The position numbers and the translations under genes are program-made. From assembly GCA_046497505.1 (NCBI GenBank), contig JAWOFN010000112.1, forward strand, positions 8,834 through 72,833: 64,000 nt of DNA, written 5' to 3'. Position 1 is the stretch's first letter; every line of letters starts with the position of its first letter. The DNA comes from a bacterium. GTDB taxonomy: Bacteria > Blakebacterota > Blakebacteria > Blakebacterales > JAWOFN01. A model generated the notes under the pieces. That model had not been told where the DNA came from. It saw only the letters and a list, made by a program, of their open reading frames with translations, and did no database searches. Positions 1,255-27,832 of the stretch are shown piece after piece.

Positions 1255-1336
1255 TCTCGAAGAGGTCCTTTCGCCGCCCGTTCGCTCCCCTAACTTATAA
1301 GGGTCGGTGCGTATCCCCGGAGCGAAAGGGCCCCAG

Positions 1337-1909
1337 ATGGGCGTCACCGCATCCCGCATGCTCCCCCTCGGTACCGAGGCCCCTGAGTTCGAACTCCCCG
1401 ACACCGAAGGGGAGATGGTCTCACTCGGGGACCTCTCCGACGGCAGGGGTCTGTGCGTGGTCTTCATGTGCAACCACTGCCCCTACGTGAAGCACATCCA
1501 GCACCTGCTGGCCGAGGTGGCGGGGGAGTACCAGGAGAAGGAGATCCGTTTCGTGGGGATCAACAGCAACGATATCGAGGCCTATCCCCAGGACCGGCCC
1601 GAACGCATGAAGGAGGACAAGGAGAGGTTCGGCTACCCCTTCCCCTATCTCTATGATGAATCGCAGGAGACGGCCCGAGCCTACAGGGCCGCCTGCACCC
1701 CGGACATCTACCTCTTCGACGACGGCCTGGAACTGGTCTACCGGGGTCAGTTCGATCCCAGCCGCCCGGGGCGGGGTGAGACCACGGGCGAGGACCTGGT
1801 CCGGGCCCTGGATGCCCTGCTGAAGGGGAAGAGGATCTCGGAAGCAGACCAGCGTCCCAGCGCCGGCTGCAACATCAAGTGGAAGCTGGGGAACGCCCCC
1901 CCCATCTGA
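1337..1909 (+). CDS. thioredoxin-fold redoxin (AhpC/TSA or TlpA-like thiol-disulfide oxidoreductase)
   Basis: ORF 1307..1909 with start moved to ATG 1337, which has an AAAGGG RBS 6 nt upstream. CNHCPY active-site CxxC lies in a thioredoxin-fold context (LCVVFMCNHCPYVKH). Confidence 0.7.
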   Translation: MGVTASRMLPLGTEAPEFELPDTEGEMVSLGDLSDGRGLCVVFMCNHCPYVKHIQHLLAEVAGEYQEKEIRFVGINSNDIEAYPQDRPERMKEDKERFGYPFPYLYDESQETARAYRAACTPDIYLFDDGLELVYRGQFDPSRPGRGETTGEDLVRALDALLKGKRISEADQRPSAGCNIKWKLGNAPPI

Positions 1910-2425: not shown

Positions 2426-3985
2426 CTACCGGATGGTCACCGCCTTCATGGGCACCCGTACGGGGATGCGATAGAGGGGGAGTGCGCTCCGGGGGCTCTC
2501 TCCCTCCGGGTCGGGCCGGGGCATCACCGCGTCGAAGTAATTCCAGGAGAAGAGGCTGTCGTCCGTGTCCGGTTCCAGCATGTAGGAAGCCACCCGCCCG
2601 CTGTTCTGGACGGTCCGGACCACGTAGCTGCCGGCGGGAAGGGTGATCTCTTCCTCCACCGTCGTCACCCGGCCCTCGGCCAGGATGTGGTTCTGGTAGG
2701 GACCGTCCGCATACTCCAGGTCGAGGAGCCTGTAGCGCTCCACGGTGAGGGTCACCGGCTCCACCAGCTTCTCCACCTCGATGTGGTGGCGGCGAAGCTG
2801 GTCCGCGACGTGATGCAGGTTCGCGTCGAAGGCGTACGCCCACGGCCTGGGCCGTGTCGCGCTGGGGACGTAGAGGGTCCGGCGCTCACCGGTGACCAGC
2901 TCCGGTTCGGCACCCCGTTCCGGGATCACGTAGAAGCGGTCCTTCCCGGGGTGGGACCGCTCCTCGAAGCCCAGCACCACCTCGTCACGGGGCTGATGGA
3001 GGGTGCGCCGCCGGGCATCCACCACGGTCCGGCGAACCTCTCCCGCGTTCTCCGCCATGAAGCGGAGAAGCCCCTCGAAGCCCTCCCGCTGGGCATCCGC
3101 CTGAACATCCAGGTCGTGGCGGCCGGGGACCTCGTAGAGGAGGGTGATGACGTTCTGCATGCCCCCGTAGGAGTGCTGCTTGCGTACCCAGGGCGTGGTG
3201 GTCCGCCAGTACCACTCCCCCGTCTCACGGTCCTGTCGGGGACCGGAATACCAGTAGAAGAGCAGGTCCTGTTCCGCCAGGTGCTGTTTCACGTACTCGT
3301 ACATGGGTCCGTTGGCGAAGTCCACCAGGGGCTGGTCGGCCGAGGGGTGGAGGGTGGCCTGGTAGGTCAGATGGTAAGGATAGGCGCCCCCGTTGTGGGC
3401 ATCCACGTACACGTCGGGCCACCAGCGGAGGAGCACCTCCTCCACCGCCGCCGAGACCTCCTCGGTCTCCATGACGATGAAGTCCCGGTTCATGTCGTAG
3501 CCCATGCTGTTGGTCCGCGTCGAGCGGGGCTCCGCCTCCGCTCCGTCCGGGTTGAGGCTGGGGATGATGAGGACGTTCACCTCCTCCAGGACGGGGCGGA
3601 GTCCACCGAGTGCGAGTTCCCGGATGAACTGCTGTCCCCCCTCTTTCCCCGAATACTCACCGCCGTGGATACTGCATGTGATGAAGAGGGTCGGCTTGCC
3701 CGAGAGCAGGAGGGTGGCGGGCTCAGCACTTGGCGGGTCACCCAGGATCACCAGCGGGACCACGCGTCCCAGCCGGGTGGTGGTGAGTTCCTGGATCAGT
3801 ATGTTGGAGCTGCGCACCTGGACCTCGAAGAGGAAGTCCATGAGCTCCTCGTGGCTGGTGGAACGCTCCCACCCCGCTCGTTCCGCACCGGTACGGGGGA
3901 GGTCCTGGGCCGCGGCTGCCGCGGGGAGCAGGAAGAGTCCCGCTGTGAGCAGGATGGTCTTCCGGAGATCGATGTGCTTCGGCAT
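2426..3985 (-). CDS. M14 family zinc carboxypeptidase, secreted
   Basis: Start at MPKHIDLRK (ATG 3985-3983) with a signal peptide (LLTAGLFLLPAAAAAQ). HGGEYSG zinc-ligand motif, NPDG, and a typical M14 fold-length catalytic domain followed by a C-terminal beta-rich domain. Confidence 0.8.
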   Translation of the reverse strand: MPKHIDLRKTILLTAGLFLLPAAAAAQDLPRTGAERAGWERSTSHEELMDFLFEVQVRSSNILIQELTTTRLGRVVPLVILGDPPSAEPATLLLSGKPTLFITCSIHGGEYSGKEGGQQFIRELALGGLRPVLEEVNVLIIPSLNPDGAEAEPRSTRTNSMGYDMNRDFIVMETEEVSAAVEEVLLRWWPDVYVDAHNGGAYPYHLTYQATLHPSADQPLVDFANGPMYEYVKQHLAEQDLLFYWYSGPRQDRETGEWYWRTTTPWVRKQHSYGGMQNVITLLYEVPGRHDLDVQADAQREGFEGLLRFMAENAGEVRRTVVDARRRTLHQPRDEVVLGFEERSHPGKDRFYVIPERGAEPELVTGERRTLYVPSATRPRPWAYAFDANLHHVADQLRRHHIEVEKLVEPVTLTVERYRLLDLEYADGPYQNHILAEGRVTTVEEEITLPAGSYVVRTVQNSGRVASYMLEPDTDDSLFSWNYFDAVMPRPDPEGESPRSALPLYRIPVRVPMKAVTIR

Positions 3986-4144
3986 ACGGAGCACTCCTTG
4001 CCCTTGTGATGAGGACGGTCCGGTCTTCTCTGTCCATGCTACAGTCTGGCCCCGCAGAATCTGCAACACAACCCGTCCCGACCGTGCCCCTGCCTCCCGC
4101 ACTCGGGGCATGTGACGGTGCTCACCCTCAGGTCGGAGGTCCGG

Positions 4145-4642
4145 TCACTCAGTGACGGGGGGGAGCCCTTCCAGTGCCAGGTCCACTTCATCGCACAGCA
4201 TACGCACACAGGAGGGCACGGCCGACCGGACCACCGGGGAGAGGGTTCCCCCGGGGCCGATCCAGGAGGGTTCCACCCCCAGAATCACCAGCCTTGAGGG
4301 AAGCATTTCCAGCCGCTCCCCCAGGTGCACCAGGTCGAGGAGGTCCCCCTCATGGAGGGAGATGCCCGGGAGTTCCTTCGCCGACCGCACATCCTCCGGG
4401 GTGAATCGGCGCATCGTACCGGGGGACTCGCCCATCCGGGCGCAGTCCACCAGGATGGCGGCGCTGCGTCCCTCCATGGCATAGAGCAGGGACATGCCCC
4501 CGGTACCCGCATCCACCGCCTCCACCAGGGGCGATGGTCCCCTGGAGGCGAGAAAGGCCTCTACCACCGCCGGACCCACCCCCTCGTCACCCATGAGGGG
4601 GTTGCCGATCCCTGCCACGAGGAGGGGCGGGGCGGTATGCAT
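4145..4642 (-). CDS. hydrogenase maturation endopeptidase (HyaD/HybD/HycI family)
   Basis: LLVAGIGNPLMGDEGVGPAVVE matches the GxGNxxxxDDGxG signature. The ATG overlaps the large-subunit stop codon in TGATG, indicating translational coupling. Confidence 0.8.
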   Translation of the reverse strand: MHTAPPLLVAGIGNPLMGDEGVGPAVVEAFLASRGPSPLVEAVDAGTGGMSLLYAMEGRSAAILVDCARMGESPGTMRRFTPEDVRSAKELPGISLHEGDLLDLVHLGERLEMLPSRLVILGVEPSWIGPGGTLSPVVRSAVPSCVRMLCDEVDLALEGLPPVTE

Positions 4643-5952
4643 CAGACGAACTCCACCTCCAGATGATGGGTCGAGCAGGAGATGCACGGGTCGTAGGAAC
4701 GGACCAGCATCTCCAACAGGGACCGGAGTCCGTCCTCTCCCCTGTCGAGGTAGCGCGGGACCAGGGCCTCGAAATCCTTCTGGATGTTGCCATGGTTCTG
4801 GTTGGTGGGGATGCAGATGTTGGCCCTCACGCAGTTCCCCGCCCCGTCGAACTCGTACCGGTGGAACAGGATCCCCCGGGGTGCCTCCACCGATCCCACA
4901 CCTTCCCCGGCCGTGGGCAGGACGGAGGGTTTCTCGGGACGGATCCCCCGGGTGAGGAGTTCGTCGATGAGGAGCAGGCCGTGCTCAACGGTCTGGACGA
5001 CCTCCACCACCTGGGCGGCGTTGTTCATATAGGGGTTCGTACACCCCTTTTCGAGTCCCAGTTCCCCGGCCGTCTTGAGCGCCAGGGGGAGGAGCGCGTC
5101 CGCATTGAGGTTGAAGCGTGCCAGGGCCCCCACCGCGTAGGCGTCCCGATGCCACTTCGTCCACTTGGCGGTGGACAGGGGACTGACGTATTCGTTCGCC
5201 ACGCGCTCGAACTCCTGCACCGGGACCCGTTCGTCGGTATCGGAAGAGCCGATGCGCCCTTCGTAGAAGGGATAGGCGCCCTCTTCCACCAGGGCGATGT
5301 ATTCGGTCTCCCGCTGGAAGTCCGGGAAACCGTCCGCGAGGGATGCCACTGCCTCCGCGATCGCCACCAGGTCGGGGACCACCGCCTGGAAACGCTCCTT
5401 GAAGTCGAGGAGCTGGGCGGCTGTCGGGAGGCGGGTGAAGCCCCCCGGAACGACGGTGACCGGATGGGTCTGCCTGCCCCCCAGCCAGTCCATGACCTCG
5501 TTGCCGAGCCGGTGGGCCCGTATGATGGTCTTCACCAGGTCGGGATGACTCTCCAGGAGCGGCACCACGCTGGGCTGACCCAGCAGGTCGGGTGCTGCCA
5601 GGTAGCCCACGTGGAGCACGTGGCTCTCCATGTACTCACCGTAGTGGAGCAGGGTCCGGAGCATCCGGGTCTGTTCCGAGACCCCGATGTCCATGGCATC
5701 CTCGATGGCCTTGACGGCTGCCAGGGAATGGCTCACCGAGCAGATCCCGCAGATCCTGCTAACGATGGTCTGGATGTGTTCCCAGGAACGGTCCCGCACC
5801 ATGGCCTCGAAGAACCTGGGGGCCTCGGGGACCTGCCACTCCACCCTCTCGATGGTCCCGTCGGAGGCCCGCACCGCGATGTTGCCGTGACCTTCGACCC
5901 GGGTGACATGATGGACATCGATCTGCACGGTGCGTGATGTGGTCTTCGCCAT
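4642..5952 (-). CDS. hydA: [NiFe] hydrogenase large subunit (alpha), group 3b sulfhydrogenase-like
   Basis: N-terminal RVEGHG and RICGICSVSH (RxCGxCxxxH) and C-terminal DPCISCSTHH (DPCxxCxxH) Ni-Fe ligand motifs. About 437 aa, short as in group 3. Start ATG at 5952 has a GAGGAG RBS. The ORF track begins at GTG 5967. Confidence 0.85.
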   Translation of the reverse strand: MAKTTSRTVQIDVHHVTRVEGHGNIAVRASDGTIERVEWQVPEAPRFFEAMVRDRSWEHIQTIVSRICGICSVSHSLAAVKAIEDAMDIGVSEQTRMLRTLLHYGEYMESHVLHVGYLAAPDLLGQPSVVPLLESHPDLVKTIIRAHRLGNEVMDWLGGRQTHPVTVVPGGFTRLPTAAQLLDFKERFQAVVPDLVAIAEAVASLADGFPDFQRETEYIALVEEGAYPFYEGRIGSSDTDERVPVQEFERVANEYVSPLSTAKWTKWHRDAYAVGALARFNLNADALLPLALKTAGELGLEKGCTNPYMNNAAQVVEVVQTVEHGLLLIDELLTRGIRPEKPSVLPTAGEGVGSVEAPRGILFHRYEFDGAGNCVRANICIPTNQNHGNIQKDFEALVPRYLDRGEDGLRSLLEMLVRSYDPCISCSTHHLEVEFV

Positions 5953-5963
5953 GGTCGGGCTCC

Positions 5964-6695
5964 TCACTTGGTTCCGAAGAGGTGCATGCGTCGCTCCAGG
6001 TCCTCTTCGGTCTTACCGTACATGTCCATGATCTCCTTGGCGGCCCCCACGTTGGCATAGGGGATGTATCCCCTGCATCCATAGCAGTAGGCTCCCGCCG
6101 AGGGACAGCAGGCGTCACATCCCGCCCGGGTGATGGGCCCCAGACACACCTCGTCGTACTCGAATCGACAGACGTTCCCTCGGGCCTTGCACTCCACACA
6201 CACCGGGTAGTCGGGGATCACCGGGGTCTTCCCGATGGCCAGGCAGCGGACCACGTAGGCGAACTCCCGGGGGTTGATGGGACACCCTTCGACCCGGTAG
6301 TCCACCTTCACCACCTCGTCGAGGGCCTTGGTGGGGGCGGTGTCCAGGTGAGGCATGCCGGCGTCATCACCGTATACCGTCTCCCGGACCTCCTCCATGG
6401 CGTACCGGTTCTTCAGCCGGTTGACCCCGCCTCGGGTCGCGCACGCCCCGAGGGCCACCAGTATCTCGGCACGGTCCCGTATGGCCCGGAGCCGCTCCTC
6501 GTCCTCCCGCCGCGTGATGGAGCCCTCGACGATGGCGATGTCGTATTCGTTGCTCTGCTCGCTCATCGCCTCCCGCCAGGCCACGGGCTGCACCACGGTG
6601 AGCAGGTCGAGGAGCTGCTCCTCCAGGTTCACGATCTGGAGCTGACAGCCCTCACAGCAGGCGAAGTCGAAGATCGCGACACGGGGCTTGCTCAT
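5964..6695 (-). CDS. hydD: [NiFe] hydrogenase small subunit (delta), group 3b
   Basis: Start MSKPRVAIFDFACCEGCQ with the proximal FeS cluster cysteines, plus further Cys clusters (CPINPREF, CVECKARGNVC, CDACCPSAGAYCYGC). Its ATG overlaps the gamma-subunit stop in TGATG. Confidence 0.8.
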   Translation of the reverse strand: MSKPRVAIFDFACCEGCQLQIVNLEEQLLDLLTVVQPVAWREAMSEQSNEYDIAIVEGSITRREDEERLRAIRDRAEILVALGACATRGGVNRLKNRYAMEEVRETVYGDDAGMPHLDTAPTKALDEVVKVDYRVEGCPINPREFAYVVRCLAIGKTPVIPDYPVCVECKARGNVCRFEYDEVCLGPITRAGCDACCPSAGAYCYGCRGYIPYANVGAAKEIMDMYGKTEEDLERRMHLFGTK

Positions 6696-7567
6696 CAGAT
6701 GGCCTCCGGGAGGTTGCGGATATCCGAGAGCCGGAACACCGGCCCGTCCTGACAGCAGTAGATGTCGTTGATCTGGCATCGGCCGCACTTACCCACCCCG
6801 CACTTCATGTGCCGCTCCAGGCTCACGAAGGTGCTCTCCTCGTCCAGGCCCTTCTTGTGGAGTTCCGCGATCACGAACCGGTACATGGCAGGGGGGCCGC
6901 ATACCACGGCCACGGTCCGTTCGGGATCCACATCCACGCCGGGGATCAGGGTGGTGATCACCCCCGAGTTGCCGTGCCAGTGCTCGTCTGCCTGGTCCAC
7001 CGTCTCCAGGAAGGTGATGTCGTCCCGGTCGCGGAAGTCGGCCAGGTCGTCACGGAAGAGGCGTTCACGCGGCTCCTTGCATCCGTAGAGGATGGTGATC
7101 CGCCCGTACTGCTCCCTGTGACGCGGGTCGAGGGTGTAGGTGATGGCAGACCGCAGGGGTGCCATGCCGCATCCCCCTCCCACGAAGAGGATATCCTTCT
7201 CCAGCATGTCCTCCTCCACCGGGAACCCGTGACCGAAGGGACCGCGCACGTAGATGCGCTCCCCCGGCTCCAGGGCGTGCATGGCGCCGGTGACGTTCCC
7301 CACCTTCCGCACCAGCATCCGGAAGGTGTCGCCCTCGTCGGGACTGGATGCGATGGAGATGGGCGCCTCGCCGATCCCCTGGATGCTCACCTGGACGAAC
7401 TGCCCCGGCATGTGCCCCAGGTGGATTCCCGATTCGAGCTGGAACTCGAAACAGGTGTCCAGGGGCGCCATGGGCTCCACGTCCAGCGTCACGGCGGGTT
7501 CGGGGACGTAGATGTGCTCGTTGACGCGTTCGGCCGTACTCTGCTGTGCGTCTGCGACCCGGGTCAT
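6695..7567 (-). CDS. hydG: hydrogenase gamma subunit, FAD/NAD(P)-binding oxidoreductase with C-terminal 2Fe-2S (HydG / AsrB-like)
   Basis: Ferredoxin-NADP reductase-like fold (RMLVRKVGNVTGAMH, ILFVGGGCGMAPLRS) and C-terminal CGVGKCGRCQ 2Fe-2S motif. Start ATG at 7567 overlaps the beta-subunit stop in ATGA. Confidence 0.8.
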   Translation of the reverse strand: MTRVADAQQSTAERVNEHIYVPEPAVTLDVEPMAPLDTCFEFQLESGIHLGHMPGQFVQVSIQGIGEAPISIASSPDEGDTFRMLVRKVGNVTGAMHALEPGERIYVRGPFGHGFPVEEDMLEKDILFVGGGCGMAPLRSAITYTLDPRHREQYGRITILYGCKEPRERLFRDDLADFRDRDDITFLETVDQADEHWHGNSGVITTLIPGVDVDPERTVAVVCGPPAMYRFVIAELHKKGLDEESTFVSLERHMKCGVGKCGRCQINDIYCCQDGPVFRLSDIRNLPEAI

Positions 7568-8589
7568 GATGAGACCTCCGCCAGGTGGTTGTAAACCTCC
7601 ACGGGGTTGGCGATCTTCGCCGGACAGGCGTCCACACACCGCCCGCAGCCCACGCATCCGCTGCTTCCGTACTTGTCCGCGATATACTTGCCCTTCCGGT
7701 AGTATCGATGCCGGTATCGGGAGGCCTTATCCTTCCGGAAGTTGTGCCCCCCCGCCACCCGCGCGAAAGGCTCCAGCATGCAGGAGTGCCAGTAGCGTGT
7801 CCGCGAACCGCTCGTGAGGTCCCAGTTCACGTCCTCGTGGACGTCGAAGCAGTAGCAGGTGGGGCAGACCATGTTGCAGGAGCCGCAGGAGAAGCAGAGC
7901 TCCGATTTATCCTCCCAGATCGGGTCGTCCCAGGAGGCGGCCAGGAGGCCGGGAAGGGTTTCGGGCGGCACCTTGAGCTTGAGCTGCTGGAGGACCTTCC
8001 GGTTCGTCTCCCACACCCGCTCGCGGGCCAGCAGGTCCTCCCGTCCCGCGTCGGGAGCATCCATGACGGGCACGGCCAGCTCCTCCCCCCGGTCGGTACG
8101 CCAGTCCAGGAGGTAGTGGCCGTCCACCCGGGTGAGGAGCACGTCGAAACCGTTCTCCACCGTGGCGGTCCCCATGCATCCCGCGAAGCAGTTCATGCCC
8201 GCCCGCTCCACGTCCGAGACCACGATGGCCGCCGCCTGGCGGAGGGCACGGTAGTGGGCGTCGAGGTTCCCCTGGAGGAAGATGGCATCCAGCTGGTTGA
8301 TGGCCGCCATGTCGTAGGGATGCACTCCCAGGAGCACGTACGGCTCCACCCGGTCGAGGGGCTGGTACTCCCCGTCCTTGAACTCCAGGAACCGGTCCTC
8401 GGGAGGGAGGACGTACTTCTTGGGCGGCAGGACCGTGGTATCGTAGTCGAGCCGCAGGTCCCCGGCATCCGCCAGGTCGTCGAATACGAATCGTTCCTCC
8501 CGGGCCTGGACCCCCACCACCCTCCCGAGCTCGATGAGCTCTTCCACCCATGTCCTCAGTACCTCGGGTTCCAGTCGTTTGACACCCAT
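7564..8589 (-). CDS. hydB: hydrogenase beta subunit, 4Fe-4S protein (HydB / AsrA-like)
   Basis: CFSCGSCNMVCPTCYC and CVGCGRCVDACP ferredoxin-type motifs. It is the first gene of the hydBGDA-protease operon, with the order seen in Pyrococcus sulfhydrogenase I. Confidence 0.8.
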   Translation of the reverse strand: MGVKRLEPEVLRTWVEELIELGRVVGVQAREERFVFDDLADAGDLRLDYDTTVLPPKKYVLPPEDRFLEFKDGEYQPLDRVEPYVLLGVHPYDMAAINQLDAIFLQGNLDAHYRALRQAAAIVVSDVERAGMNCFAGCMGTATVENGFDVLLTRVDGHYLLDWRTDRGEELAVPVMDAPDAGREDLLARERVWETNRKVLQQLKLKVPPETLPGLLAASWDDPIWEDKSELCFSCGSCNMVCPTCYCFDVHEDVNWDLTSGSRTRYWHSCMLEPFARVAGGHNFRKDKASRYRHRYYRKGKYIADKYGSSGCVGCGRCVDACPAKIANPVEVYNHLAEVSS

Positions 8590-8611
8590 GGGAGCCCCCG
8601 GTCAGGTAACA

Positions 8612-8627
8612 TGTGAAAGTTTTCACA
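8612..8627. promoter_or_regulatory. perfect CRP/FNR-family operator palindrome TGTGA-AAGTTT-TCACA, 22 bp upstream of the hydB start
   Basis: Read directly: TGTGAAAGTTTTCACA lies within an unusually AT-rich patch, flanked by a TATATTAT -10-like element on the gene strand. Confidence 0.45.
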
Positions 8628-8676
8628 AATAATATACCCTTTTCTACCGCCTCCGGGAAGCTCCATCAAACCGAAT

Positions 8677-8692
8677 AGTGAATTTTTTCACG
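8677..8692. promoter_or_regulatory. second CRP/FNR-like site AGTGA-ATTTTT-TCACG, 65 bp distal to the first
   Basis: Perfect GTGA-N8-TCAC core, with 4 of 5 matches to TGTGA/TCACA in each half. Centre-to-centre spacing to the proximal site is 65 bp. Confidence 0.3.
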
Positions 8693-8857
8693 TGCCCGCC
8701 GGGTAGGCCCCTGAAGTCATTATGCCGAAGGGACTTACGCATGAATCCCTCCCGGGGTCCTTTCGGTCCCGCCCCCGGCCCCCCGAAGACGCTTGCGGCG
8801 GGAGGCGCCGCAGGTCGCCCACTCACTCACCCACCCTCCCTCCGGGGGTGCGACCCG

Positions 8858-10006
8858 CTACTTCTCGAAACGCTCCACCACCGCCGGACCGACGGCGTCC
8901 CGGTGGACCATGATCCCCAGGACCCTGAGGGCGAACCAGTCCCCCCGCATCCACACGTAGCCCCGGCGGCCCGAACTGCTGCCGTGGGAGTTCTTGATCA
9001 GGTACCAGTCGTACCCGTCCACCACCCGGTGATCCACGGCATGGACCAGGTGGTCATCGGTGGTGCGGCGGTCCTCGAAATCGCGCTGGCGGTTCTCCTG
9101 GTCGATCATCAGGGGGCTGCCCATACCGGGATGGATCACCGCGATCCCCGCGCCGTTCCAGGAAGCCCCGCGGTCTCCCCAATCGGTGTCGATGGCCACG
9201 CTGAACCCCCGATCCAGCGCCCTGTTCATGATCCGGATGAAGTCGCCCAGGGGGACGTTGTAGTAGCCGTCGTAATCCCACCAGTTGTCCGGCACGTCCA
9301 GTTCGCCCCGGGTGTAGAAGGGGATGTCCGTGTAGGAGGTGAGTTCCCAGTAGGCGTCATAATCCAGCCCCAGGTAGTCGTCCGCGTACTCCTTCGGGGT
9401 CATCGAACGCTCCCCCACCCTGATCGAAGCGGGCGGAGGGGCCATATGGCGGTCGAGGACCTCGCGGACCCGCGATACCACCTCGTCCTCGTCCCAGGCC
9501 CCCTTCTCCTTCTCGTCCGAGATGACCGCGTTCAGGTCCCTGCGCATGGCACCGTAGTCCTCCACCACCGGGTAGTCCGCTTCCGGGACGATGCCGTACT
9601 CCCGGACGAGCCACACCGTGTCGTGGCTGAGCCCCCCATCGCTGAAGCGGGCCCCCTCGCCTCTCCGCTCCGCGTATTCCCGCGCCTTCTCCACGTAGGC
9701 CCAGTAGACAACGTAGTATTCGGAGAGATCCAGTTCCTCCCGCCTCCCCAGGGACTCGCGGACCGTCTCGTTGGCCCGGAGGACCTCCGACTCCAGGAAG
9801 GAGACGGTAGCGAAGTTCCAGCAGGTCCCCCCCCGCTGGGACTTGATCGAGGTGTGGGCGATGTCGGTACCCAGCCAGTTCGGGGCATGGATCGAGTCGA
9901 AGAAATGCTCCATGTCGGCTCGGCCCTGCCCCAGGGCGGGGGAGGTCCCCGCTAGCAGGAAGGTCGCTGCCAGCAGGACCGCCGTACGGCGTGCTGCTCT
10001 CTGCAT
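8858..10006 (-). CDS. C1 (papain) family cysteine peptidase, aminopeptidase C / bleomycin-hydrolase-like, secreted
   Basis: Signal peptide (LLAATFLLAGTSPALGQ). Catalytic QRGGTCWNFA Cys motif and a C-terminal HAV...NSHG His region. GGAGG RBS. Confidence 0.7.
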   Translation of the reverse strand: MQRAARRTAVLLAATFLLAGTSPALGQGRADMEHFFDSIHAPNWLGTDIAHTSIKSQRGGTCWNFATVSFLESEVLRANETVRESLGRREELDLSEYYVVYWAYVEKAREYAERRGEGARFSDGGLSHDTVWLVREYGIVPEADYPVVEDYGAMRRDLNAVISDEKEKGAWDEDEVVSRVREVLDRHMAPPPASIRVGERSMTPKEYADDYLGLDYDAYWELTSYTDIPFYTRGELDVPDNWWDYDGYYNVPLGDFIRIMNRALDRGFSVAIDTDWGDRGASWNGAGIAVIHPGMGSPLMIDQENRQRDFEDRRTTDDHLVHAVDHRVVDGYDWYLIKNSHGSSSGRRGYVWMRGDWFALRVLGIMVHRDAVGPAVVERFEK

Positions 10007-17098: not shown

Positions 17099-18793
17099 TC
17101 AGTGTCCTCCCGCCTGACCGTCCTTGCGGGGGTCCGATGCCGCCGCCCACCCGGGTGCCAGGCGCAGGATCGCCTGGGCCCCGCCGAAGGCCGTTCGGCC
17201 CTCGTCGGTGAGTTCGTGACCCATCCGGGTCAGCTCCCCACGGACCCGCCCCGGGATCGGAGCCTCCAGCGCCACCCTCCGGCCGCCCAGGTGCCGGAAT
17301 CGGGGGGCATCCACCGCCTCCTGCAGATCCATGCCGAAGACCAGGAGGTTGAGCAGGAGCTGCACGTGTCCCTGGGGCTGCATCGACCCCCCCATGACCC
17401 CGAAGGCCAGCCACGGCTCGATCCCCCCCTCGCTCCCCGTGCGGGTCACGAACCCCGGGATCAGGGTGTGGAAGGGGCGCTTCCCGGGTCCCACGGTGTT
17501 GGGATGGTCCGGCTCGGTGGTGAAGCCGGCTCCCCGGTTCTGCAGCGCGAACCCGGTCCCCGGTACCACGACCCCCGAACCGAACTCCCAATAGATGCTG
17601 TTGATGAAGGAGACCATGTTGCCGCGGCTGTCAGCCGCCGTCAGGTAGATGGTCTCGCTGGAGAGGTCCAGTTCCCCGGGCGCTGCTCCCTCGGAGGCCT
17701 CCCGGGGGTGGATGGCCTCCCTCCGGCGGCGGAGGAAGTCCTCCTCCAGCAGGTCCTCGGGGGAGGCCTCCATGCTGGTCGGGTCCCCCACGTAGGCCTC
17801 CAGGTCGGCGAAGGCCTGCTTCTTCGCCTCGATGAGGTGATGCAGGTAGGCGGGGCTGTTGTGCCCCATCCCCTCCAGATCGAAGGTTTCCAGTATCCCG
17901 AGCATCTCCAGGGCCGCGATGCCCTGGCCGTTGGGGGGAAGTTCCCACACGGTGTATCCATGGAAGGGGAGCCCCACCGGCTCCACCCATTCCACCCGGT
18001 GGGCCCTCAGGTCCTCCGGGGTGAGGAACCCGCCCTCCTGCTGGAGATGCTCCGCGATCGTGCGGCCCAGCTCGCCGCCGTACAGGTGACCCGGCCCCCG
18101 ACGGGCGATGGCCCTCAGCGTCGAGGCGTAGTCCGGGTTGCGGAACCACTCCCCCGCCCGCGGGGTGGTCCCGTCTTCCATGAGGTAGGTGTCCCGCGCC
18201 CCCTCGTCCCTCGTCAGACGCCCTGTCTCGGCCGCCCACTGACGAGCGATCTTGGGGGAGACGGGGAACCCCTCCTCCGCGAGGCGGATGGCCGGTCCCA
18301 GTGCCTGGGCGAGTTCGATCGTGCCGAACCTCTCCAGCAGGGCCGACCAGCCGGAGAGGGCCCCGGGGACCGTAACCGGCTCGGCCCCGAAGAGGGGGAC
18401 CCGGTCCAGGTCCCGCTCCCGCAGGGCCTGGCGGGTCATCCGGGACCCGGAGCGCCCGCTGGCGTTCAGACCGATGAGCGCGCCCTCCTCCGCCGACCAC
18501 ACGATGGCGAAGACGTCACCGCCGATCCCGGTCATGTGGGGTTCGGTGACGGTCAGGACCGCTGCCGCGGTCACCGCCGCGTCGATCGCGTTGCCCCCCT
18601 GCTCCAGGACCGCCAGTCCCGCGGAGGTGGCAAGGGGCTGGCTGGCAGCCACCGCGCCACGGGGGGCGTAGACGGTGGAACGTCCTGCCAGGGTCGTGGG
18701 ACGGTCCTCCGATCCCCCCTCCCCGCAGGCACCGGCCAGAAAGAGGAGGAGGACGAGGGGAACAGCCGCGGCTGCGGGAACGTATTGTGACAT
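17099..18793 (-). CDS. ggt: gamma-glutamyltransferase
   Basis: Signal/lipoprotein N-terminus. TGIGGDVFAIVW and the autoprocessing region ETIYLTAADSRGNMVSFINS, followed by GSGVVVPGTGFALQNRGAGF, are typical of GGT. Confidence 0.85.
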   Translation of the reverse strand: MSQYVPAAAAVPLVLLLFLAGACGEGGSEDRPTTLAGRSTVYAPRGAVAASQPLATSAGLAVLEQGGNAIDAAVTAAAVLTVTEPHMTGIGGDVFAIVWSAEEGALIGLNASGRSGSRMTRQALRERDLDRVPLFGAEPVTVPGALSGWSALLERFGTIELAQALGPAIRLAEEGFPVSPKIARQWAAETGRLTRDEGARDTYLMEDGTTPRAGEWFRNPDYASTLRAIARRGPGHLYGGELGRTIAEHLQQEGGFLTPEDLRAHRVEWVEPVGLPFHGYTVWELPPNGQGIAALEMLGILETFDLEGMGHNSPAYLHHLIEAKKQAFADLEAYVGDPTSMEASPEDLLEEDFLRRRREAIHPREASEGAAPGELDLSSETIYLTAADSRGNMVSFINSIYWEFGSGVVVPGTGFALQNRGAGFTTEPDHPNTVGPGKRPFHTLIPGFVTRTGSEGGIEPWLAFGVMGGSMQPQGHVQLLLNLLVFGMDLQEAVDAPRFRHLGGRRVALEAPIPGRVRGELTRMGHELTDEGRTAFGGAQAILRLAPGWAAASDPRKDGQAGGH

Positions 18794-18935
18794 GCAGGGC
18801 TCCTGACCTCAGGCGTGGGCAGGAGGATGGTAAGATGGCGCCTGCTTGGCTGTCCAGGCCCCGGTCGCCGCAGGGAGGAGGTCGCCCTCTACCGGGGACC
18901 GGGCCGCCGCTATCGGTCCGGGGCGGCGGAGAGGG

Positions 18936-20060
18936 CTACATGAGGGTGGCCAGGAAGATCCCCGCCGCCACCGCCGAACCGATGACCCCCGAGACGTTGG
19001 GGGCCATGGCCTGCATGATCACGTAGTTCTCCGGGTCCTCCTGGGCGCACACCATCTGACAGACCCTGGCGGAGTCCGGTACGGCAGATACCCCGGCGGC
19101 TCCGATCACCGGGTTGATCTTCTCCCTGCTGACCAGGTTGAGCAGCTTGGCGAACATCAGCCCCGCCGCGGTGGCGACCGCGAAGGAGGCCGCCCCCAGG
19201 GCGAAGATCATGATGCTCTCGGGCGTGAGGAACCGGCTCGCGTCGGTGGAGGTGCCCACGGTGAACCCGAGCAGGATGGTGATGATATCGATGAAGGCGG
19301 TCCGGGCCGTCTTGGCCAGGCGCTCCGTGACCCCCGATTCTTTCAGGAGGTTCCCGAAGAAGAGCATCCCAAGCAGGGGGATGGAGCCGGGTGCGATGAA
19401 TGCGGTGAGCAGGAAGGCGACCACGGGGAAGATCATGCGCAGCCTGGCACTCGGCTGGGGGGAGGGCTTCATCCGGATCAGCCGTTCCTCCCGGCTGGTG
19501 AGGAGCCGGATGATGGGGGGCTGTATCACCGGCACCAGGGCCATATAGGAATAGGCCGCCACCGCGATGGCACCCAGGTACTGCGGGGCCATCTGCGAGG
19601 AGAGGAAGATGGCGGTGGGACCGTCCGCGCCCCCGATGATGCCGATGGCGGCGGCCTCGTGCATCTCGAAGCCGAGAGCCAGCGACCCCAGGAAGGTCAG
19701 GAAGATACCGGCCTGAGCCGCCGCACCCAGCAGGATGAGCCGGGGGTTGGCCAGCATGGCCGAGAAGTCGGTCATCGCCCCGATACCCAGGAAGATCAGG
19801 GGCGGGTACCACCCCTGGCGGACACCCTGGTAGAGGATGCTGAGGACGCTCCCCTCCTCGTACACCCCGAGGTTCATCCCCGCCTGGAAGGGGATGTTGC
19901 CCACGAGGATCCCGAAACCGATGGGGACCAGCAGCAGGGGTTCGTAGTCCTTGCTGATGGCCAGGTAGATGAACACGCACCCCACCACGATCATGATGAG
20001 GTTGCCCAGGGTGAAGTGCCCGAGGGCACCGGCCTGGAGGAACTCGCGAAGGATGGTCAT
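18936..20060 (-). CDS. Na+-translocating decarboxylase membrane beta subunit (OadB/MmdB/GcdB family)
   Basis: 374 aa polytopic protein with conserved family segments (GAMTDFSAMLANPR, IGGADGPTAIF, NLLKESGVTERL). Confidence 0.85.
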   Translation of the reverse strand: MTILREFLQAGALGHFTLGNLIMIVVGCVFIYLAISKDYEPLLLVPIGFGILVGNIPFQAGMNLGVYEEGSVLSILYQGVRQGWYPPLIFLGIGAMTDFSAMLANPRLILLGAAAQAGIFLTFLGSLALGFEMHEAAAIGIIGGADGPTAIFLSSQMAPQYLGAIAVAAYSYMALVPVIQPPIIRLLTSREERLIRMKPSPQPSARLRMIFPVVAFLLTAFIAPGSIPLLGMLFFGNLLKESGVTERLAKTARTAFIDIITILLGFTVGTSTDASRFLTPESIMIFALGAASFAVATAAGLMFAKLLNLVSREKINPVIGAAGVSAVPDSARVCQMVCAQEDPENYVIMQAMAPNVSGVIGSAVAAGIFLATLM

Positions 20061-20082
20061 GGATCGGTCCGGTGGCTTGGGG

Positions 20083-20502
20083 CTACTCGAGTTCGACCAG
20101 GACCTGGCCCTCGCGCACCGAGTCTCCGGCCGCGACGGGGATGGCCTTCACCTTCCCGCTGGCGGGGGCGGCGATCGACGTGTTCATCTTCATCGCCTCG
20201 ACGACCAGCAGGGTCTGTCCCTTGCTCACCTCGTCACCCACCTCCGCCTTCAGTTCCACCACGGTCCCGGCGATGGGAGAGGCCACCGCCCCCCCCAGGT
20301 CCTTGCCCCCCGCGGCACCCGCAGGGGTCCGGGAGGGTGCGGAGCCGGGTGGGGGGGCCGGAGGCGTCGTCGGGGAAGCGGGGCCGCCGCCCCCGGGACG
20401 TACCGCCGGGAGGGCCCCGGTCTGGGGGAATCCCTCCCCCGGGTCCAGCACCTCCACTTCCACCTCGTACGCGACACCGTGGACCGTGATCTTCAGCTTC
20501 AC
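20083..20502 (-). CDS. biotin carboxyl carrier subunit of the decarboxylase (biotinyl domain with Pro/Ala linker)
   Basis: EAMKM biotinylation motif in a C-terminal biotinyl domain. A long P/A/G-rich linker is encoded by the GC-rich 20280-20420 stretch. GTG start with an AAGGGAAG RBS. Confidence 0.8.
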   Translation of the reverse strand: MKLKITVHGVAYEVEVEVLDPGEGFPQTGALPAVRPGGGGPASPTTPPAPPPGSAPSRTPAGAAGGKDLGGAVASPIAGTVVELKAEVGDEVSKGQTLLVVEAMKMNTSIAAPASGKVKAIPVAAGDSVREGQVLVELE

Positions 20503-20547
20503 GTCGATCTTCCCTTCATGGGGGCGGGCAGCAGGCCCGCCCTCGGT

Positions 20548-20886
20548 TCAGCTCTTCTTCTTCGGCATGATGTGACTGCCGAGGAGCACCGAGCGTCCCT
20601 GGGTGGCCCAGGGGCTGTGGGGGTTCTCGGCAGGAAGCAGTCTCCGGACGCTCCGGATCCTGAAGCGGCCCTCGATCATGGTGGCGACGGCGGCCGTGAT
20701 GAGCACGAGCGTCGTGTTGTCGATGGTGGGGGAGGACTCGGCGGGGCCGGCCTCCTTCTCGGAGGCCTTCGCGAGCCGCCGCTCGTCCAGGCGGCTCATG
20801 GTCTTCACCGCCAGGGAGATGAGGGCCAGGACACCGAAGACCATCACGATGCCTGCCGCACTGAGTACCAGGCCGTTCACGGGCAT
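20548..20886 (-). CDS. OadG-like small membrane subunit of Na+-pumping decarboxylase
   Basis: 112 aa with one N-terminal TM helix (LVLSAAGIVMVFGVLALISLAV) and a hydrophilic tail. It lies between the carboxyltransferase and biotin-carrier genes as in mmdADCB/gcd operons. Confidence 0.55.
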   Translation of the reverse strand: MPVNGLVLSAAGIVMVFGVLALISLAVKTMSRLDERRLAKASEKEAGPAESSPTIDNTTLVLITAAVATMIEGRFRIRSVRRLLPAENPHSPWATQGRSVLLGSHIMPKKKS

Positions 20887-20899
20887 CCGTTCGTTCCCA

Positions 20900-22450
20900 T
20901 CAGAGGGGGATCAGACCGTGCTTCTTCTGCGGCCGCACATCCCGTTTCGCCTTGACGACCTCCAGGGCGGCCGCGAGCCAGGGCCGTGTCTCGCTGGGCT
21001 CGATGACATCGTCGATCAGCCCGCTGCCTGCCGCCTGGAACGGGTTTCCGAACCGCTCCTTGTACTCCTCGATCTTCTCCTTGCGGGTGGCTTCCGGGTC
21101 GTCGGAGGCCTGGATCTCCCGGCGGTAGAGCACGTTCACGGCCCCTTCGGCCCCCATCACTGCGATCTCACCCGTGGGCCACGCACAGGTGCGGTCCGCA
21201 CCCATGTCCTTGCTGCACATGGCCAGGTACGCTCCGCCGTACGCCTTGCGCACCACCACGGTGAGTTTCGGTACCGTGGCCGCCGCGTAGGCGAAGAGCA
21301 TCTTCGCACCGTGCCGGATGATCCCCCCGTACTCCTGCTCCACCCCGGGCATGAAGCCGGGTACATCCACCAGGGTGACGATGGGGATGTTGAACGCGTT
21401 GCAGAAGCGGATGAACCGGCTGGCCTTGTCGGAGGAATCGATGTCCAGAACACCGGCCCGCTGTATGGGCTGGTTGGCCACGACACCGATGGTGCGCCCC
21501 ATGAGGCGTCCGAACCCCACGATGATGTTGGGGGCGAAGTGCTCCTGCACCTCCAGGAAGTCCCCCTGGTCCACCACGCGCAGTATGATCTCCTTCATGT
21601 CGTAGGGATCCCGCCCCTCAGCGGGCACCACCTCGTCCAAGGAGGGGTCCCCGACCGCGGTCTCCTCGTGGTATTCGGGATAGAAGGGCGGGTCCTCCAT
21701 GTTGTTGCTGGGGAGGAAGGAGAGGAGGCGCCGGGCGATGCGTACGGCGTCTTCGTCATCCGATGCCACGAAATGCACCACACCGGAGTAGTACGCGTGG
21801 CTGGAGACGCCGCCCAGTTCCTCGGCCGTCACATCCTCTCCGGTGACCTCCTTGATCACGCTGGGGCCGGTGATGTACATCTGCCCCTCCTGCTGCACCT
21901 GGATGATGAAGTCCGTGAGGGCGGGACTGTAGGCCGCTCCGCCGGCGCAGGGTCCGGCGATGATGCTTATCTGGGGGACCACACCCGAGAGGAGGACGTT
22001 GCGGAAGAAGATCTTGCCGTACCCGGAGAGGGCATCCACCCCTTCCTGGATCCGGGCACCGGCGCCGTCGTTGACGAAGACGAAGGGGTCGCCGGTCTTC
22101 ATGGCGCTCTCCATGATCTCGGCGATCTTCCGTGCCCCGGCTTCACCCACCGAGCCGCCCGCGACGGTGAAGTCCTGGCTGGCGGTATAGACGGGTCGGC
22201 CGTCCACGATACCCGATCCGGTCACGATCCCCTCGGCCGGCATCTCCCGACCCTGCATCCCGAAATGCACGGCCTTGTGCCGCATATGGAGGTGCGTCTC
22301 CTGGAATGTATCGGGCTCGAAGAGGAGTGCGAGACGTTCGCGTGCGGTGAGTTTTCCCTTGTCGTGCTGCTTCTCGATCCGTTCCGGGCCTCCGCCCTGC
22401 ATGAGCTTCTGACGCCGTTTACGGAGGTCCTCGATCGGCTTCTCCATCAT
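20900..22450 (-). CDS. acyl-CoA carboxyltransferase subunit (methylmalonyl-CoA / glutaconyl-CoA decarboxylase alpha; propionyl-CoA carboxylase beta family)
   Basis: Two crotonase-like carboxyltransferase halves. Conserved blocks GGARIQEG, IAGPCAGGAAYSPALTDF and VTLVDVPGFMPG. Start at the tandem ATG 22450/22447 with a G-rich RBS. Confidence 0.85.
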   Translation of the reverse strand: MMEKPIEDLRKRRQKLMQGGGPERIEKQHDKGKLTARERLALLFEPDTFQETHLHMRHKAVHFGMQGREMPAEGIVTGSGIVDGRPVYTASQDFTVAGGSVGEAGARKIAEIMESAMKTGDPFVFVNDGAGARIQEGVDALSGYGKIFFRNVLLSGVVPQISIIAGPCAGGAAYSPALTDFIIQVQQEGQMYITGPSVIKEVTGEDVTAEELGGVSSHAYYSGVVHFVASDDEDAVRIARRLLSFLPSNNMEDPPFYPEYHEETAVGDPSLDEVVPAEGRDPYDMKEIILRVVDQGDFLEVQEHFAPNIIVGFGRLMGRTIGVVANQPIQRAGVLDIDSSDKASRFIRFCNAFNIPIVTLVDVPGFMPGVEQEYGGIIRHGAKMLFAYAAATVPKLTVVVRKAYGGAYLAMCSKDMGADRTCAWPTGEIAVMGAEGAVNVLYRREIQASDDPEATRKEKIEEYKERFGNPFQAAGSGLIDDVIEPSETRPWLAAALEVVKAKRDVRPQKKHGLIPL

Positions 22451-22599
22451 CTCCCCCCCTGGGTCCCTGTCCCCGGCCCTCACCCTGTGACGGCCGCCAT
22501 TCCCGGCGGGCTGAGGGTCCCGCCGATATCCTCCACAAGATAGTACCTCTCCAGCAGAGGAAAGCCCGAAATCGACAGGGTGCCGGGTGATCAGCTATC

Positions 22600-24126: not shown

Positions 24127-24231
24127 GTCGCTCCTCCTCACTGCCCTGCGTCGATGGGTTCGATCCCTCCTCGTAAGCTGAGAGCCGCGGGGGGGAAGCA
24201 GGGGTTCGGACTTTCTCGTACCGCTCGCGCC

Positions 24232-24260
24232 TTGGACAGCTCCTCCTGTCCCGCTACAAT
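24232..24260 (+). promoter_or_regulatory. sigma70-like promoter candidate TTGGAC-N17-TACAAT upstream of the HMG-CoA synthase cluster
   Basis: Read directly: TTGGAC at 24232, a 17-nt spacer, and TACAAT at 24255. It is 135 nt upstream of the 24395 start. Confidence 0.3.
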
Positions 24261-24394
24261 GGCAGCGCCCTTGGGGGAGACCGGTCCCGAGGACCGCCCC
24301 CCGGGCTCGCCCGGATCCCGGGCACAGCAGCTGGACGACGCGGCATACCTCGGGGTGTGCCCGCACAACATCGCGCCTGCCAGGGGGATCAGCC

Positions 24395-25441
24395 ATGGTC
24401 GGTATCGTCGGGTACGGATCATACGTGCCCTGTTTCCGGATCAAAGTCGAGGAGATCGCCCGCCAGTGGGGCCAGGACCCCGAACCGGTGAAGAACGGGC
24501 TCATCGTCTACGAGAAGACGGTACCCGGCCGGGACGAGGACACCATCACCATCAGCGTGCAGGCCGCCCGCTACGCCATCCAGCGGGCGGGCATCGATCC
24601 TTCCCTCATCGGAGCGGTCTACATCGGCTCCGAGTCGCACCCCTATGCCGTCAAGCCCAGCGGTACCGTCCTCGTCGACGCGCTGGGGATCGGGCCGGAC
24701 GTGCACGTCTCGGACTACGAGTTCGCCTGCAAGGCGGGCACCGAGGCGATGTACGTGGCCATGAGCCACGTGAAGGCGGGAGAGATGCCGTACGCCCTGG
24801 GGATCGGAGCGGACACCTCCCAGGGGGCCCCCGGGGATGCCCTGGAGTACACCGCCTCGGCCGGGGGTTCCGCTTTCGTGATGGGTTCGGAGGGGGTGGT
24901 GGCCGAGTGCGAGGCCTCCTATTCCTACACCACGGATACGGCTGACTTCTGGCGGCGCGAGGGGCGGGAGTACCCCATGCACGGGGGACGGTTCACCGGG
25001 GAACCCGCCTACTTCCGTCACGTCCTCGGAGCCGCCAGGGGCCTCATGGAACGTACCGGTACCGAGGTCGGCGACTTCACCTGGGGGGTCTTCCACATGC
25101 CCAACGGCAAGTTCCCTCTCCGGGCGGCGACCACCCTCGGCTTCGAGAAGGAGCAGATCGAGCCGGGTTGGGTGGTGCGCTGGATCGGGAACACCTACTC
25201 CGGTTCCTCCCCCTGCGGGCTGTCCGCCACCCTGGATGCAGCATCACCCGGTGACCGGATCCTAATGGTCTCCTTCGGCTCGGGGGCGGGGAGCGACGCT
25301 TTCATCTGGAAGGTGACCGATCGTATCGAGGAGGTGAGAGACCGGGCCCCCCGGTTCAGCGACCTGATGGAGCGCCGGAAGATCTACCTGGACTACGGCA
25401 GGTATGCCAGCTTCCGCCGCAAGATCCTCATGAACGACTAG
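24395..25441 (+). CDS. hydroxymethylglutaryl-CoA synthase, archaeal type (UPF0219)
   Basis: N-terminus [12 protein letters not shown]..., [10 protein letters not shown] (active-site Cys), HMPNGKFP and SFGSGAGSD are characteristic of the archaeal-type HMGS. Confidence 0.8.
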
Positions 25442-25492
25442 ACCCTGCGGCTCCCGTATCTGGAGGCATCCATCGGAAGGAAGGAAGAGGTC

Positions 25493-27036: not shown

Positions 27037-27178
27037 TCCCGGGATTCCCTTGAATCGTCTGCGGTTTCCCCGGCTCTTTACCTTTATGAGGGGCGGGAGG
27101 AGAAGCCCACCCGCCGGATGAACCGACCCGCGCGCCTCCACGACCGTGGGGCGCCGACCGATCATGAGAGGACCGAGT

Positions 27179-27832
27179 ATGCCGTTTCTGGACGAGAAGG
27201 TACAGGGTGAGGTGAGGGAGCAGCTCGCCGAACTCGAGGAGGAGGTCTCCCTCCTGCTGTTCACCCGCGAAGAGGACTGCCAGTTCTGCGACGAGACCGC
27301 GCAGCTGCTTCGGGAGGTCGCCGATCTGAGCGCGAAGGTGAACCTGGAGGTCCGCGACCTGGAAGAGTCCATGGAGGTCGCCGAGCATTACCAGGTCGAC
27401 AAGGTGCCGGCGCTGGTGGTGCAGGGTGAGCAGGACCACGGCATCCGATTCTACGGTATCCCCTCCGGATACGAGTTCGGCTCCCTGCTCGAGATCATCC
27501 GCCTGGTGAGCAAGGACGACCCGGAACTGGGCGAGGAGCAGCGCGGGAAGCTCGCTTCCCTCGAGCACCCGGTCCACCTCCAGGTGTTCGTGACCCCGAC
27601 CTGCCCCTACTGTCCCCGGGCGGTCGTGGCGGCGCAGAAGATGGCCATGGCCAGCGAGTGGGTCCGGGCCGACATGGTGGAGGCCAGCGAGTTCCCCGAA
27701 CTGACCCAGCACTATCAGGTACAGGGCGTTCCCAGGACGATCATGAACGAGGAGCACCACATCGAGGGGGCCGTCCCCGAGGAACACCTCCTGGAATGGG
27801 TACTCTCCGAGGCGGGGTCCTCCGGAGAGTAG
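27179..27832 (+). CDS. protein disulfide oxidoreductase, glutaredoxin-like with two thioredoxin-fold units (Pyrococcus PDO-like)
   Basis: Two CxxC sites (CQFC and CPYC) separated by about 110 aa. GAGAGGA RBS. Start ATG at 27179 (MPFLDEKVQ). Confidence 0.7.
   Translation: MPFLDEKVQGEVREQLAELEEEVSLLLFTREEDCQFCDETAQLLREVADLSAKVNLEVRDLEESMEVAEHYQVDKVPALVVQGEQDHGIRFYGIPSGYEFGSLLEIIRLVSKDDPELGEEQRGKLASLEHPVHLQVFVTPTCPYCPRAVVAAQKMAMASEWVRADMVEASEFPELTQHYQVQGVPRTIMNEEHHIEGAVPEEHLLEWVLSEAGSSGE

Follow-up and report, generated by a model that had tools for sequence, protein, structure and literature searches.

Here we describe a five-gene operon on the minus strand (positions 4145-8589) of a 64-kb stretch of DNA from an uncultured bacterium, contig JAWOFN010000112.1 (the whole of this stretch being referred to below as the window). 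In our reading, to which we would give a probability of roughly 0.88, the operon encodes a cytosolic, heterotetrameric group 3b [NiFe] hydrogenase that is NAD(P)-coupled and bidirectional, together with its dedicated C-terminal protease, and would be subject to Rex-type repression, such that the enzyme would act as an H2-evolving redox 'valve'. The operon is an ordinary member of a well-known and widespread kind, already deposited and automatically annotated; its gene order recurs across at least eight phyla, its alpha subunit is in GenBank, and group 3b operons are a routine feature of genome papers, as for Caldithrix (PMC5317091) and Calderihabitans (PMC7306483). The main value of the analysis thus lies in a correct annotation, and in one further observation on the cycling of H2 by an uncultured, peptide-degrading lineage. 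It also offers two modest leads, namely a pair of Rex-type operators and, in the same window, a complex I that is without NuoEFG.

Architecture of the operon

The original prediction had placed five co-directional genes at exactly 4145-8589, and all five are intact in the list of open reading frames (ORFs), in a direct reading of the reverse complement and in a scripted check; the strand, which had been left unstated, is minus throughout. Each gene starts with ATG, ends with TGA and has no internal stop codon (scripted check). In the direction of transcription they encode the beta subunit (7564-8589, 341 amino acids), the gamma subunit (6695-7567, 290 amino acids), the delta or small subunit (5964-6695, 243 amino acids), the alpha or large subunit (4642-5952, 436 amino acids) and an endopeptidase (4145-4642, 165 amino acids), so that the beta-gamma-delta-alpha order reads just as had been proposed.

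Overlaps had been claimed for every junction, and this holds for three of the four: beta/gamma (ATGA, a 4-nucleotide overlap), gamma/delta and alpha/protease (both TGATG, each a 1-nucleotide overlap). The delta/alpha junction is the exception, reading TGA-GGAGCCCGACC-ATG, with no overlap and a spacer that by direct reading is 11 nucleotides long, rather than the 12 given before. It includes a GGAG ribosome-binding site, read directly from the sequence (5960-5963, minus strand), 7 nucleotides upstream of the alpha ATG at 5952. An alternative GTG start at 5967 would create a GTGA overlap, and with it overlaps at all four junctions, but was rejected; ATG 5952 is preferred because of the GGAG spacing, the lengths of homologues and the identical 436-residue protein in GenBank. 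The large subunit thus has 436 residues, and not the 437 first reported.

The G+C content at third codon positions (GC3) of the five genes, 0.81-0.88, is the same as in the remaining window, and overall GC is flat over the region; a compositional sign of recent acquisition is therefore absent. An antisense ORF opposite the protease gene had been chosen by a GC3-based gene caller, and was overruled by Pfam and TIGRFAM matches. The same five genes, with identical junction geometry, are found in the two closest relatives, L081 (GCA_964539285.1, alpha 87% identical) and L082 (Logan SRR7614767, 81%), and the combination of gene content and junction geometry is far beyond chance. The beta gene of L081 (947-2128) is called at 393 amino acids, as against 341 here, from the same conserved ATG, and the difference points to an insertion of approximately 52 residues in that protein.

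Assignment to group 3b

Both catalytic subunits rank group 3b first. In NCBIfam, alpha scores 272 bits against ShyA and 232 against HydA, ahead of VhuA (3c, 173) and FrhA (3a, 130); delta likewise scores higher against HydD (190) and ShyD (166) than against VhuG (109) and FrhG (54). In a PDB search with alpha as the only query, the top four distinct hits all belong to group 3b, with HyhL of Thermococcus kodakarensis (5yxy) at 222 bits and the alpha subunit of Pyrococcus furiosus soluble hydrogenase I (SHI, or sulfhydrogenase 1) at 212-213 bits (9nez_D, 213), as compared with 201 for MvhA (3c), 135 for HoxH (3d) and approximately 101 for FrhA (3a). A profile built from 20 sequences of the alpha family widens this separation, giving 289-298 bits for 3b (5yxy 298, 9nez_D 292), 251 for 3c, 182 for 3d and 122 for 3a, such that 3b leads the other subgroups by at least 38 bits. 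The small subunit aligns over its full length with the delta chain of P. furiosus SHI (9nez_A, 172 bits), with 5odc_E at 111 bits in the same search.

The same picture holds across the complex, in that the top or sole solved homologue of every structural subunit is a chain of P. furiosus SHI or T. kodakarensis HyhL, in full-length matches that retain the ligand cysteines, whilst the top curated NCBIfam model of each is a sulfhydrogenase subunit of the Thermococcales type. The partner genes agree: none of MvhD/Hdr, HoxEFU or FrhB is encoded among the neighbouring ORFs of the window, and the AsrA-like beta and AsrB/PyrK-like gamma partners that define group 3b are present. The group 3b call of the original prediction is supported by these scores, with ShyA, HyhL and SHI alpha all ranking above the 3a, 3c and 3d references.

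Subunits, cofactor motifs and maturation

The large subunit (Pfam NiFeSe_Hases, 87.8 bits, above the gathering score) carries both of the motifs previously ascribed to it, RxCGxCxxxH as RICGICSVSH at residue 66 and DPCxxCxxH as DPCISCSTH at residue 421; the Ni-Fe ligand positions of the two motifs are invariant across the 20-sequence family alignment. A short C-terminal tail of seven residues, HLEVEFV, follows the second motif. The protein is identical over its full length (100% identity and coverage) to the 436-residue GenBank entry MFO7769138.1, annotated as 'MAG: Ni/Fe hydrogenase subunit alpha [bacterium]' and encoded on a 90,472-bp contig.

In the small subunit (Pfam Oxidored_q6, 94.5 bits, above the gathering score), the cysteines of the proximal, medial and distal clusters all align with those of 9nez_A. 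Its N-terminus, MSKPRVAIFDF, has neither an RRxF motif nor a Tat signal, the operon contains no membrane subunit, and, by a crude test, none of the five proteins has a hydrophobic segment (Kyte-Doolittle means over 19 residues do not exceed 1.56); features that fit a cytosolic enzyme.

The beta subunit matches Pfam Fer4_22 at 115 bits (above the gathering score) and, in NCBIfam, ShyB (220 bits), HydB (198) and AsrA (148). In the PDB its sole relative is the beta chain of P. furiosus SHI (9nez_B; 180 bits, residues 12-327), in an alignment that conserves both CxxCxxCxxxCP motifs. Gamma exceeds the gathering scores of Pfam FAD_binding_6, NAD_binding_1 and DHODB_Fe-S_bind, and scores 240 bits against PRK08345, 213 against AsrB and 197 against HydG. 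The FAD- and NAD(P)-binding residues that the original prediction required of it are kept in a 194-bit alignment with P. furiosus SHI gamma (9nez_C), the shared motifs being PISIASSP (PISIxSSP), GGGCGMAPLRS (GxGxAPLRS) and CGPPAMY (CGPPxMY), as is the [2Fe-2S] motif C-x4-C-x2-C...C (C256, C261, C264 and C272). The canonical arginine of the RxYS flavin motif is missing here; since it is equally missing from P. furiosus gamma, we regard its loss as a trait of the family and not as a defect.

The fifth gene encodes a maturation endopeptidase of the HyaD/HybD/HycI family, scoring 128.5 bits against TIGR00072 (cut-off 47.45) and 79.5 against Pfam HycI (cut-off 23). Its best solved relative is 5ttx, with which the GDEG, VDC and LHE positions align; we take the Glu, Asp and His of these motifs to be the metal ligands, as in HybD.

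A conserved pair of palindromes upstream of the operon

Rex is a repressor that is released by NADH, and its operator has the consensus TTGTGAA-N4-TTCACAA (PMC2883068; PMC5317091; PMC13077300) with an A/T-rich, W4 spacer (PMC2883068). A search of the whole 64 kb for this consensus, allowing up to three mismatches, returned exactly two matches (0.30 expected), both of them within the 268-nucleotide spacer upstream of beta. The proximal site, O1 (8611-8628), reads TTGTGAAAACTTTCACAT on the minus strand, with a single mismatch, and lies 39 nucleotides upstream of the beta ATG; the distal site, O2 (8676-8693), reads ACGTGAAAAAATTCACTA on the minus strand, has three mismatches but an exact GTGAA-N4-TTCAC core, and lies 104 nucleotides upstream of the same ATG. 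The two are separated by 65 bp, centre to centre, and are the only places in the window where that core occurs exactly.

Both palindromes are conserved in the two closest relatives, at 39 and 103-104 nucleotides before the beta ATG, in a three-genome alignment in which the surrounding DNA has diverged, and the counterparts are the sole such matches on the contigs concerned. Between them lies a putative promoter (8641-8669, minus strand), with TTGATG as the -35 element (8669-8664), a 17-nucleotide spacer and TAGAAA as the -10 element (8646-8641); the corresponding TTG and GGTAGAA/GGTACAT blocks keep the 17-nucleotide spacing in the alignment of all three genomes. Should this assignment be right, O1 would closely follow the start of transcription and O2 would closely precede the -35 element, both of which are positions suited to a repressor.

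A scan for consensus sigma-70 promoters did not call the TTGATG/TAGAAA element, sigma-70 and terminator scans around the operon gave nothing convincing, and Rfam found no RNA family in the whole window. A conserved-looking GC hairpin at approximately 8806-8830 was considered as a terminator and dropped, its fold being no better than that of shuffled sequence (z = 0.55).

Further afield, Rex-like boxes occur within 300 nucleotides upstream of beta in eight of 68 other group 3b loci (1.7 expected), with the best examples in metagenome-assembled genomes (MAGs) of Bacillota; in none of the loci with such boxes is a rex gene adjacent to the operon.

A model for expression, catalysis and physiological role

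Drawing these findings together, we propose a model for how the operon might be expressed and its products work. A single polycistronic mRNA would carry all five genes, and the three overlapping junctions would couple their translation and so help to set the stoichiometry of the subunits. We infer the cofactor content by homology to SHI: the Ni-Fe site of alpha, with the four cysteines of RICGICSVSH and DPCISCSTH as ligands, would split or form H2; electrons would then pass via three Fe-S clusters in delta to the [4Fe-4S] clusters of beta, and from there to gamma, which would receive them at its [2Fe-2S] cluster and FAD and is predicted to bind NAD(P)+ or NAD(P)H. Nickel would presumably be inserted by Hyp proteins encoded elsewhere, after which the endopeptidase would cut the HLEVEFV tail from alpha after His429.

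The paired sites suggest a Rex-type repression of the operon that responds to the NADH/NAD+ ratio. Bracketing the promoter, the two operators would hold it silent whilst NADH/NAD+ is low and allow expression once reductant builds up. Since Rex-type operators imply expression when NADH/NAD+ rises, we favour as the predicted direction of catalysis the evolution of H2, with the enzyme serving as a redox valve during the catabolism of peptides and amino acids in an uncultured fermenter. Control of this type would be no new principle, as it has been proposed already for another group 3b operon, that of Calderihabitans, upstream of which a Rex-like motif has been reported (PMC7306483); the present case is specific in that the sites form a conserved pair and that the organisms belong to another, uncultured lineage. 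The pair predicts that expression should track the NADH/NAD+ ratio, and this prediction, if true, would help to decide whether bacterial 3b enzymes are mainly H2-evolving valves.

Weighing the model against its alternatives

A number of points weigh against this model. On the side of the enzyme, its placement comes from nearest-neighbour scores in NCBIfam, the PDB and the family profile, and the single-sequence margin of alpha over MvhA is just 21 bits. Scores also fall short of the NCBIfam equivalog cut-offs (NF040828-NF040836), with ShyA at 272 against 700, HydA at 232 against 880, ShyB at 220 against 690, HydG at 197 against 650 and HydD at 190 against 500. As these cut-offs are tuned to archaeal orthologues, we read the shortfall as the mark of a bacterial 3b lineage, and not of an SHI or SHII orthologue; properties of the characterised archaeal enzymes may therefore not carry over to it. 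Genes for Hyp maturation proteins are absent from the window, both in Pfam searches of its called ORFs and in tblastn with HypA-F from two other bacterial 3b loci, L084 and L085 (chance-level matches, E >= 0.075). On the side of regulation, the promoter and start site are putative, most 3b loci of other phyla are without Rex-like boxes, neither a rex gene nor a Rex-domain protein is found among the ORFs of the window or on the short contigs of the relatives, and the palindromes also match the CRP core, TGTGA-N6-TCACA.

The first alternative keeps the enzyme and reverses its role, such that H2 uptake would supply NADPH for biosynthesis; this is a live, if on balance unlikely, possibility. P. 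furiosus SHI is commonly credited with this function. The uptake reading is kept in play by the reversibility of the enzyme class, group 3b being described in HydDB as physiologically reversible (PMC5037454), and the genes for a complex I core, a Cu/Zn superoxide dismutase and a thiol peroxidase in the window hint at a life that is not strictly fermentative. Expression at high NADH/NAD+, as implied by Rex-type operators, is nevertheless the better fit to disposal of reductant, and the surroundings of the operon are rich in peptidases and in genes for amino-acid catabolism.

A second alternative concerns the palindromes, which might instead be sites for a protein of the CRP/FNR family, with the operon answering to a different signal, for instance cAMP, CO or O2/NO. 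O1 does contain a perfect TGTGA-N6-TCACA (8612-8627), the sole exact instance in the window (0.02 expected), and the window has no visible rex gene to set against it. All six sites, however (two in each of three genomes), keep GTGAA-N4-TTCAC exactly and have A/T-rich spacers like the W4 of the Rex consensus, whilst O2 is variable at the outer T/A positions of a CRP core; it is for this reason that we favour Rex, and the location of O1 between the inferred -10 element and the start codon would likewise be that of a repressor. We consider control by a CRP/FNR-type protein rather doubtful.

It is most improbable that the main activity is the reduction of sulfur or polysulfide (that of a true sulfhydrogenase) or, by way of beta and gamma, a sulfite-related reaction of the AsrAB kind. 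In the archaeal enzyme, reduction of sulfur is commonly regarded as non-physiological. Beta and gamma are indeed homologous to AsrA and AsrB (148 and 213 bits), and HydDB mentions sulfhydrogenase activity as possible for group 3b (PMC5037454), yet the adjacent genes include neither AsrC, the sirohaem subunit, nor anything else of sulfur metabolism, and the AsrA and AsrB scores lie under their equivalog cut-offs and, in the case of beta, also under the scores obtained with the hydrogenase-subunit models. Hardly credible at all is an alpha subunit from another subgroup of group 3 (3c Mvh-type, 3d Hox-type or 3a Frh-type) that is merely 3b-like, for although MvhA comes within 21 bits of HyhL and homologues are named inconsistently in JGI (F420-reducing or sulfhydrogenase), the profile parts 3b from the rest, the small subunit too ranks 3b first, and the partners are AsrA- and AsrB-like and not MvhD/Hdr, HoxEFU or FrhB.

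Going beyond the Rex-repressed 3b valve that we prefer, one might speculate that the Rex-gated hydrogenase is the principal route by which the organism re-oxidises NAD(P)H, with H2 evolution rather than respiration setting its pyridine-nucleotide balance, and that the dual operators form a clade-specific switch, redox-responsive and acting through cooperativity or looping. The first part of this idea arises from the complex I operon being without NuoEFG; as a whole we would call it a long shot.

Distribution among bacteria

A protein search with alpha gave at least 8000 candidates at E <= 1e-10, and the best 120 of these are at least 68% identical and come mostly from MAGs of Planctomycetota, Kiritimatiellia, Lentisphaerota, Verrucomicrobiota and Spirochaetia. 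Near-identical orthologues of alpha are named in JGI either 'sulfhydrogenase subunit alpha' or 'coenzyme F420-reducing hydrogenase alpha subunit'; the latter is misleading, as these operons are without an FrhB partner. A scan of GTDB species representatives gave 80 loci (alpha identity 56-73%) spanning at least eight phyla, with Planctomycetota, Verrucomicrobiota, Spirochaetota, Chloroflexota, Myxococcota, Bacillota, Armatimonadota and Fermentibacteria all represented; by tblastn with the five proteins of the window, essentially every complete locus among them has the order beta-gamma-delta-alpha, usually with the protease directly after. Such breadth accords with HydDB, where group 3b is described as NADP-coupled and is recorded from many bacterial and archaeal phyla, and since 3b enzymes were thus already known to be widespread in bacteria (PMC5037454), the comparison with Thermococcales drawn by the original prediction is of historical interest and unsurprising.

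The L084 contig (1-6772; ENA ERZ10759773, NODE_606) shows a second AsrA-like/AsrB-like pair, divergent from that genome's own 3b operon, followed by genes for a 542-residue protein without a Pfam match, a ferredoxin, and NuoH-, NuoB-, NuoC- and NuoD/NiFe-like proteins; this may represent a membrane-bound, group-4-type module with a diaphorase of the beta/gamma type.

Genomic surroundings

The operon is flanked on the same strand by genes for a C1-like peptidase upstream (8858-10006) and an M14 carboxypeptidase downstream (2426-4111). A respiratory complex I had been reported for this bacterium, and a core operon is indeed present (nuoA-B-C-D-H-I-J-K-L-M-N, 53005-63682, minus strand), but in an 11-subunit form without the NADH-oxidising module: nuoD (60627-61802) abuts nuoH (59632-60627), and nuoE, nuoF and nuoG are hence missing there, so that oxidation of NADH is not supported by the gene set. 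NuoD has relatives at 72-93% identity, beyond which the nearest sequences (approximately 62-64%) come from MAGs of Ignavibacteria, Bacteroidota and Marinimicrobia (Fidelibacterota), all of the FCB group; on this comparison the lineage probably has a deep affinity to that group.

The 'fermentation genes' mentioned alongside complex I amount to a Na+-pumping decarboxylase operon, a dehydrogenase of the Glu/Leu type (35529-36605) and many peptidases. The first of these (18939-22594, minus strand) encodes a carboxyltransferase, OAD gamma, a biotin carrier and OAD beta, which puts it among the methylmalonyl-/glutaconyl-CoA or oxaloacetate decarboxylases.

Several other features of the window deserve a brief record. 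Tandem paralogues of approximately 760 amino acids each (37537-39837 and 39933-42197, plus strand) are fusions of an Na+/H+ exchanger with TrkA-N and PTS EIIA-2 domains. At 43494-45075 (plus strand), genes for a CapB/PgsB-like Mur ligase and for CapC overlap; together with a gamma-glutamyltranspeptidase gene at 17102-18808 (minus strand), they suggest synthesis and turnover of poly-gamma-glutamate; close to the Cap genes are long ORFs (45080-46171, 45350-46849, 46877-48166 and 50961-52229) that have no Pfam match and whose true frames are uncertain. At 24182-26641 (plus strand) an HMG-CoA-synthase-like gene (ACP_syn_III_C) lies directly 5' of a thiolase gene, an arrangement like that of the thiolase and HMG-CoA synthase pairs known from the mevalonate pathway. 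Finally, genes for a thioredoxin/glutaredoxin-like protein, an ECF-type sigma factor, a Cu/Zn superoxide dismutase and an AhpC/TSA peroxiredoxin (27122-29438 and 1301-1906, plus strand) contrast, as regards oxidative stress, with an otherwise anaerobic-looking genome.

Comparison with known systems

The closest characterised counterparts are P. furiosus SHI (HydBGDA; 9nez/9nf0, 9e15 and 9e1j) and T. kodakarensis HyhL (5yxy), which have the same four types of subunit in the same order, with full-length scores of 213-222 bits for alpha, 180 for beta, 194 for gamma and 172 for delta. The Ni-Fe cysteine ligands, the cysteine motifs of the Fe-S clusters, the FAD/NAD(P) motifs and the short C-terminal tail are shared. 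Unlike those enzymes, the present one comes from a GC-rich bacterium, presumably a mesophile or moderate thermophile; a TGATG overlap joins its protease gene to the operon, the upstream region has Rex-type operators, and its scores are far under the NCBIfam equivalog cut-offs.

Amongst bacterial group 3b operons (loci L001-L085, in MAGs of PVC, Spirochaetota, Chloroflexota, Bacillota and others), alpha is 56-87% identical, the gene order is the same and the same protease usually comes next. In several bacterial lineages (L084, L085) the protease is followed by hypA, B, F, C, D and E, which is not so here; conversely, paired operators at -39 and -104 are seen only in the window and its two closest relatives, and are mostly missing from other bacterial 3b lineages.

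With respect to regulation, the Rex operators (ROP) of Gram-positives, Thermotogae and Calditrichota share with O1 and O2 the TTGTGAA-N4-TTCACAA consensus and an A/T-rich spacer, and known ROP sites lie near the promoters of NADH-reoxidising enzymes, hydrogenases included (PMC2883068; PMC5317091; PMC13077300); in contrast to that consensus, O2 departs at three outer positions, and both O1 and O2 are predicted sites. A further counterpart is hyd-3b of Calderihabitans maritimus KKC1, which comprises the same five genes (beta, gamma, small and large subunits and maturation protease), has a Rex-binding-like motif upstream and is up-regulated under reducing (CO) conditions (PMC7306483). KKC1 belongs to a different phylum, the Bacillota, with one motif reported and a transcriptome behind it, whereas the operon described here has a conserved pair of such predicted sites.

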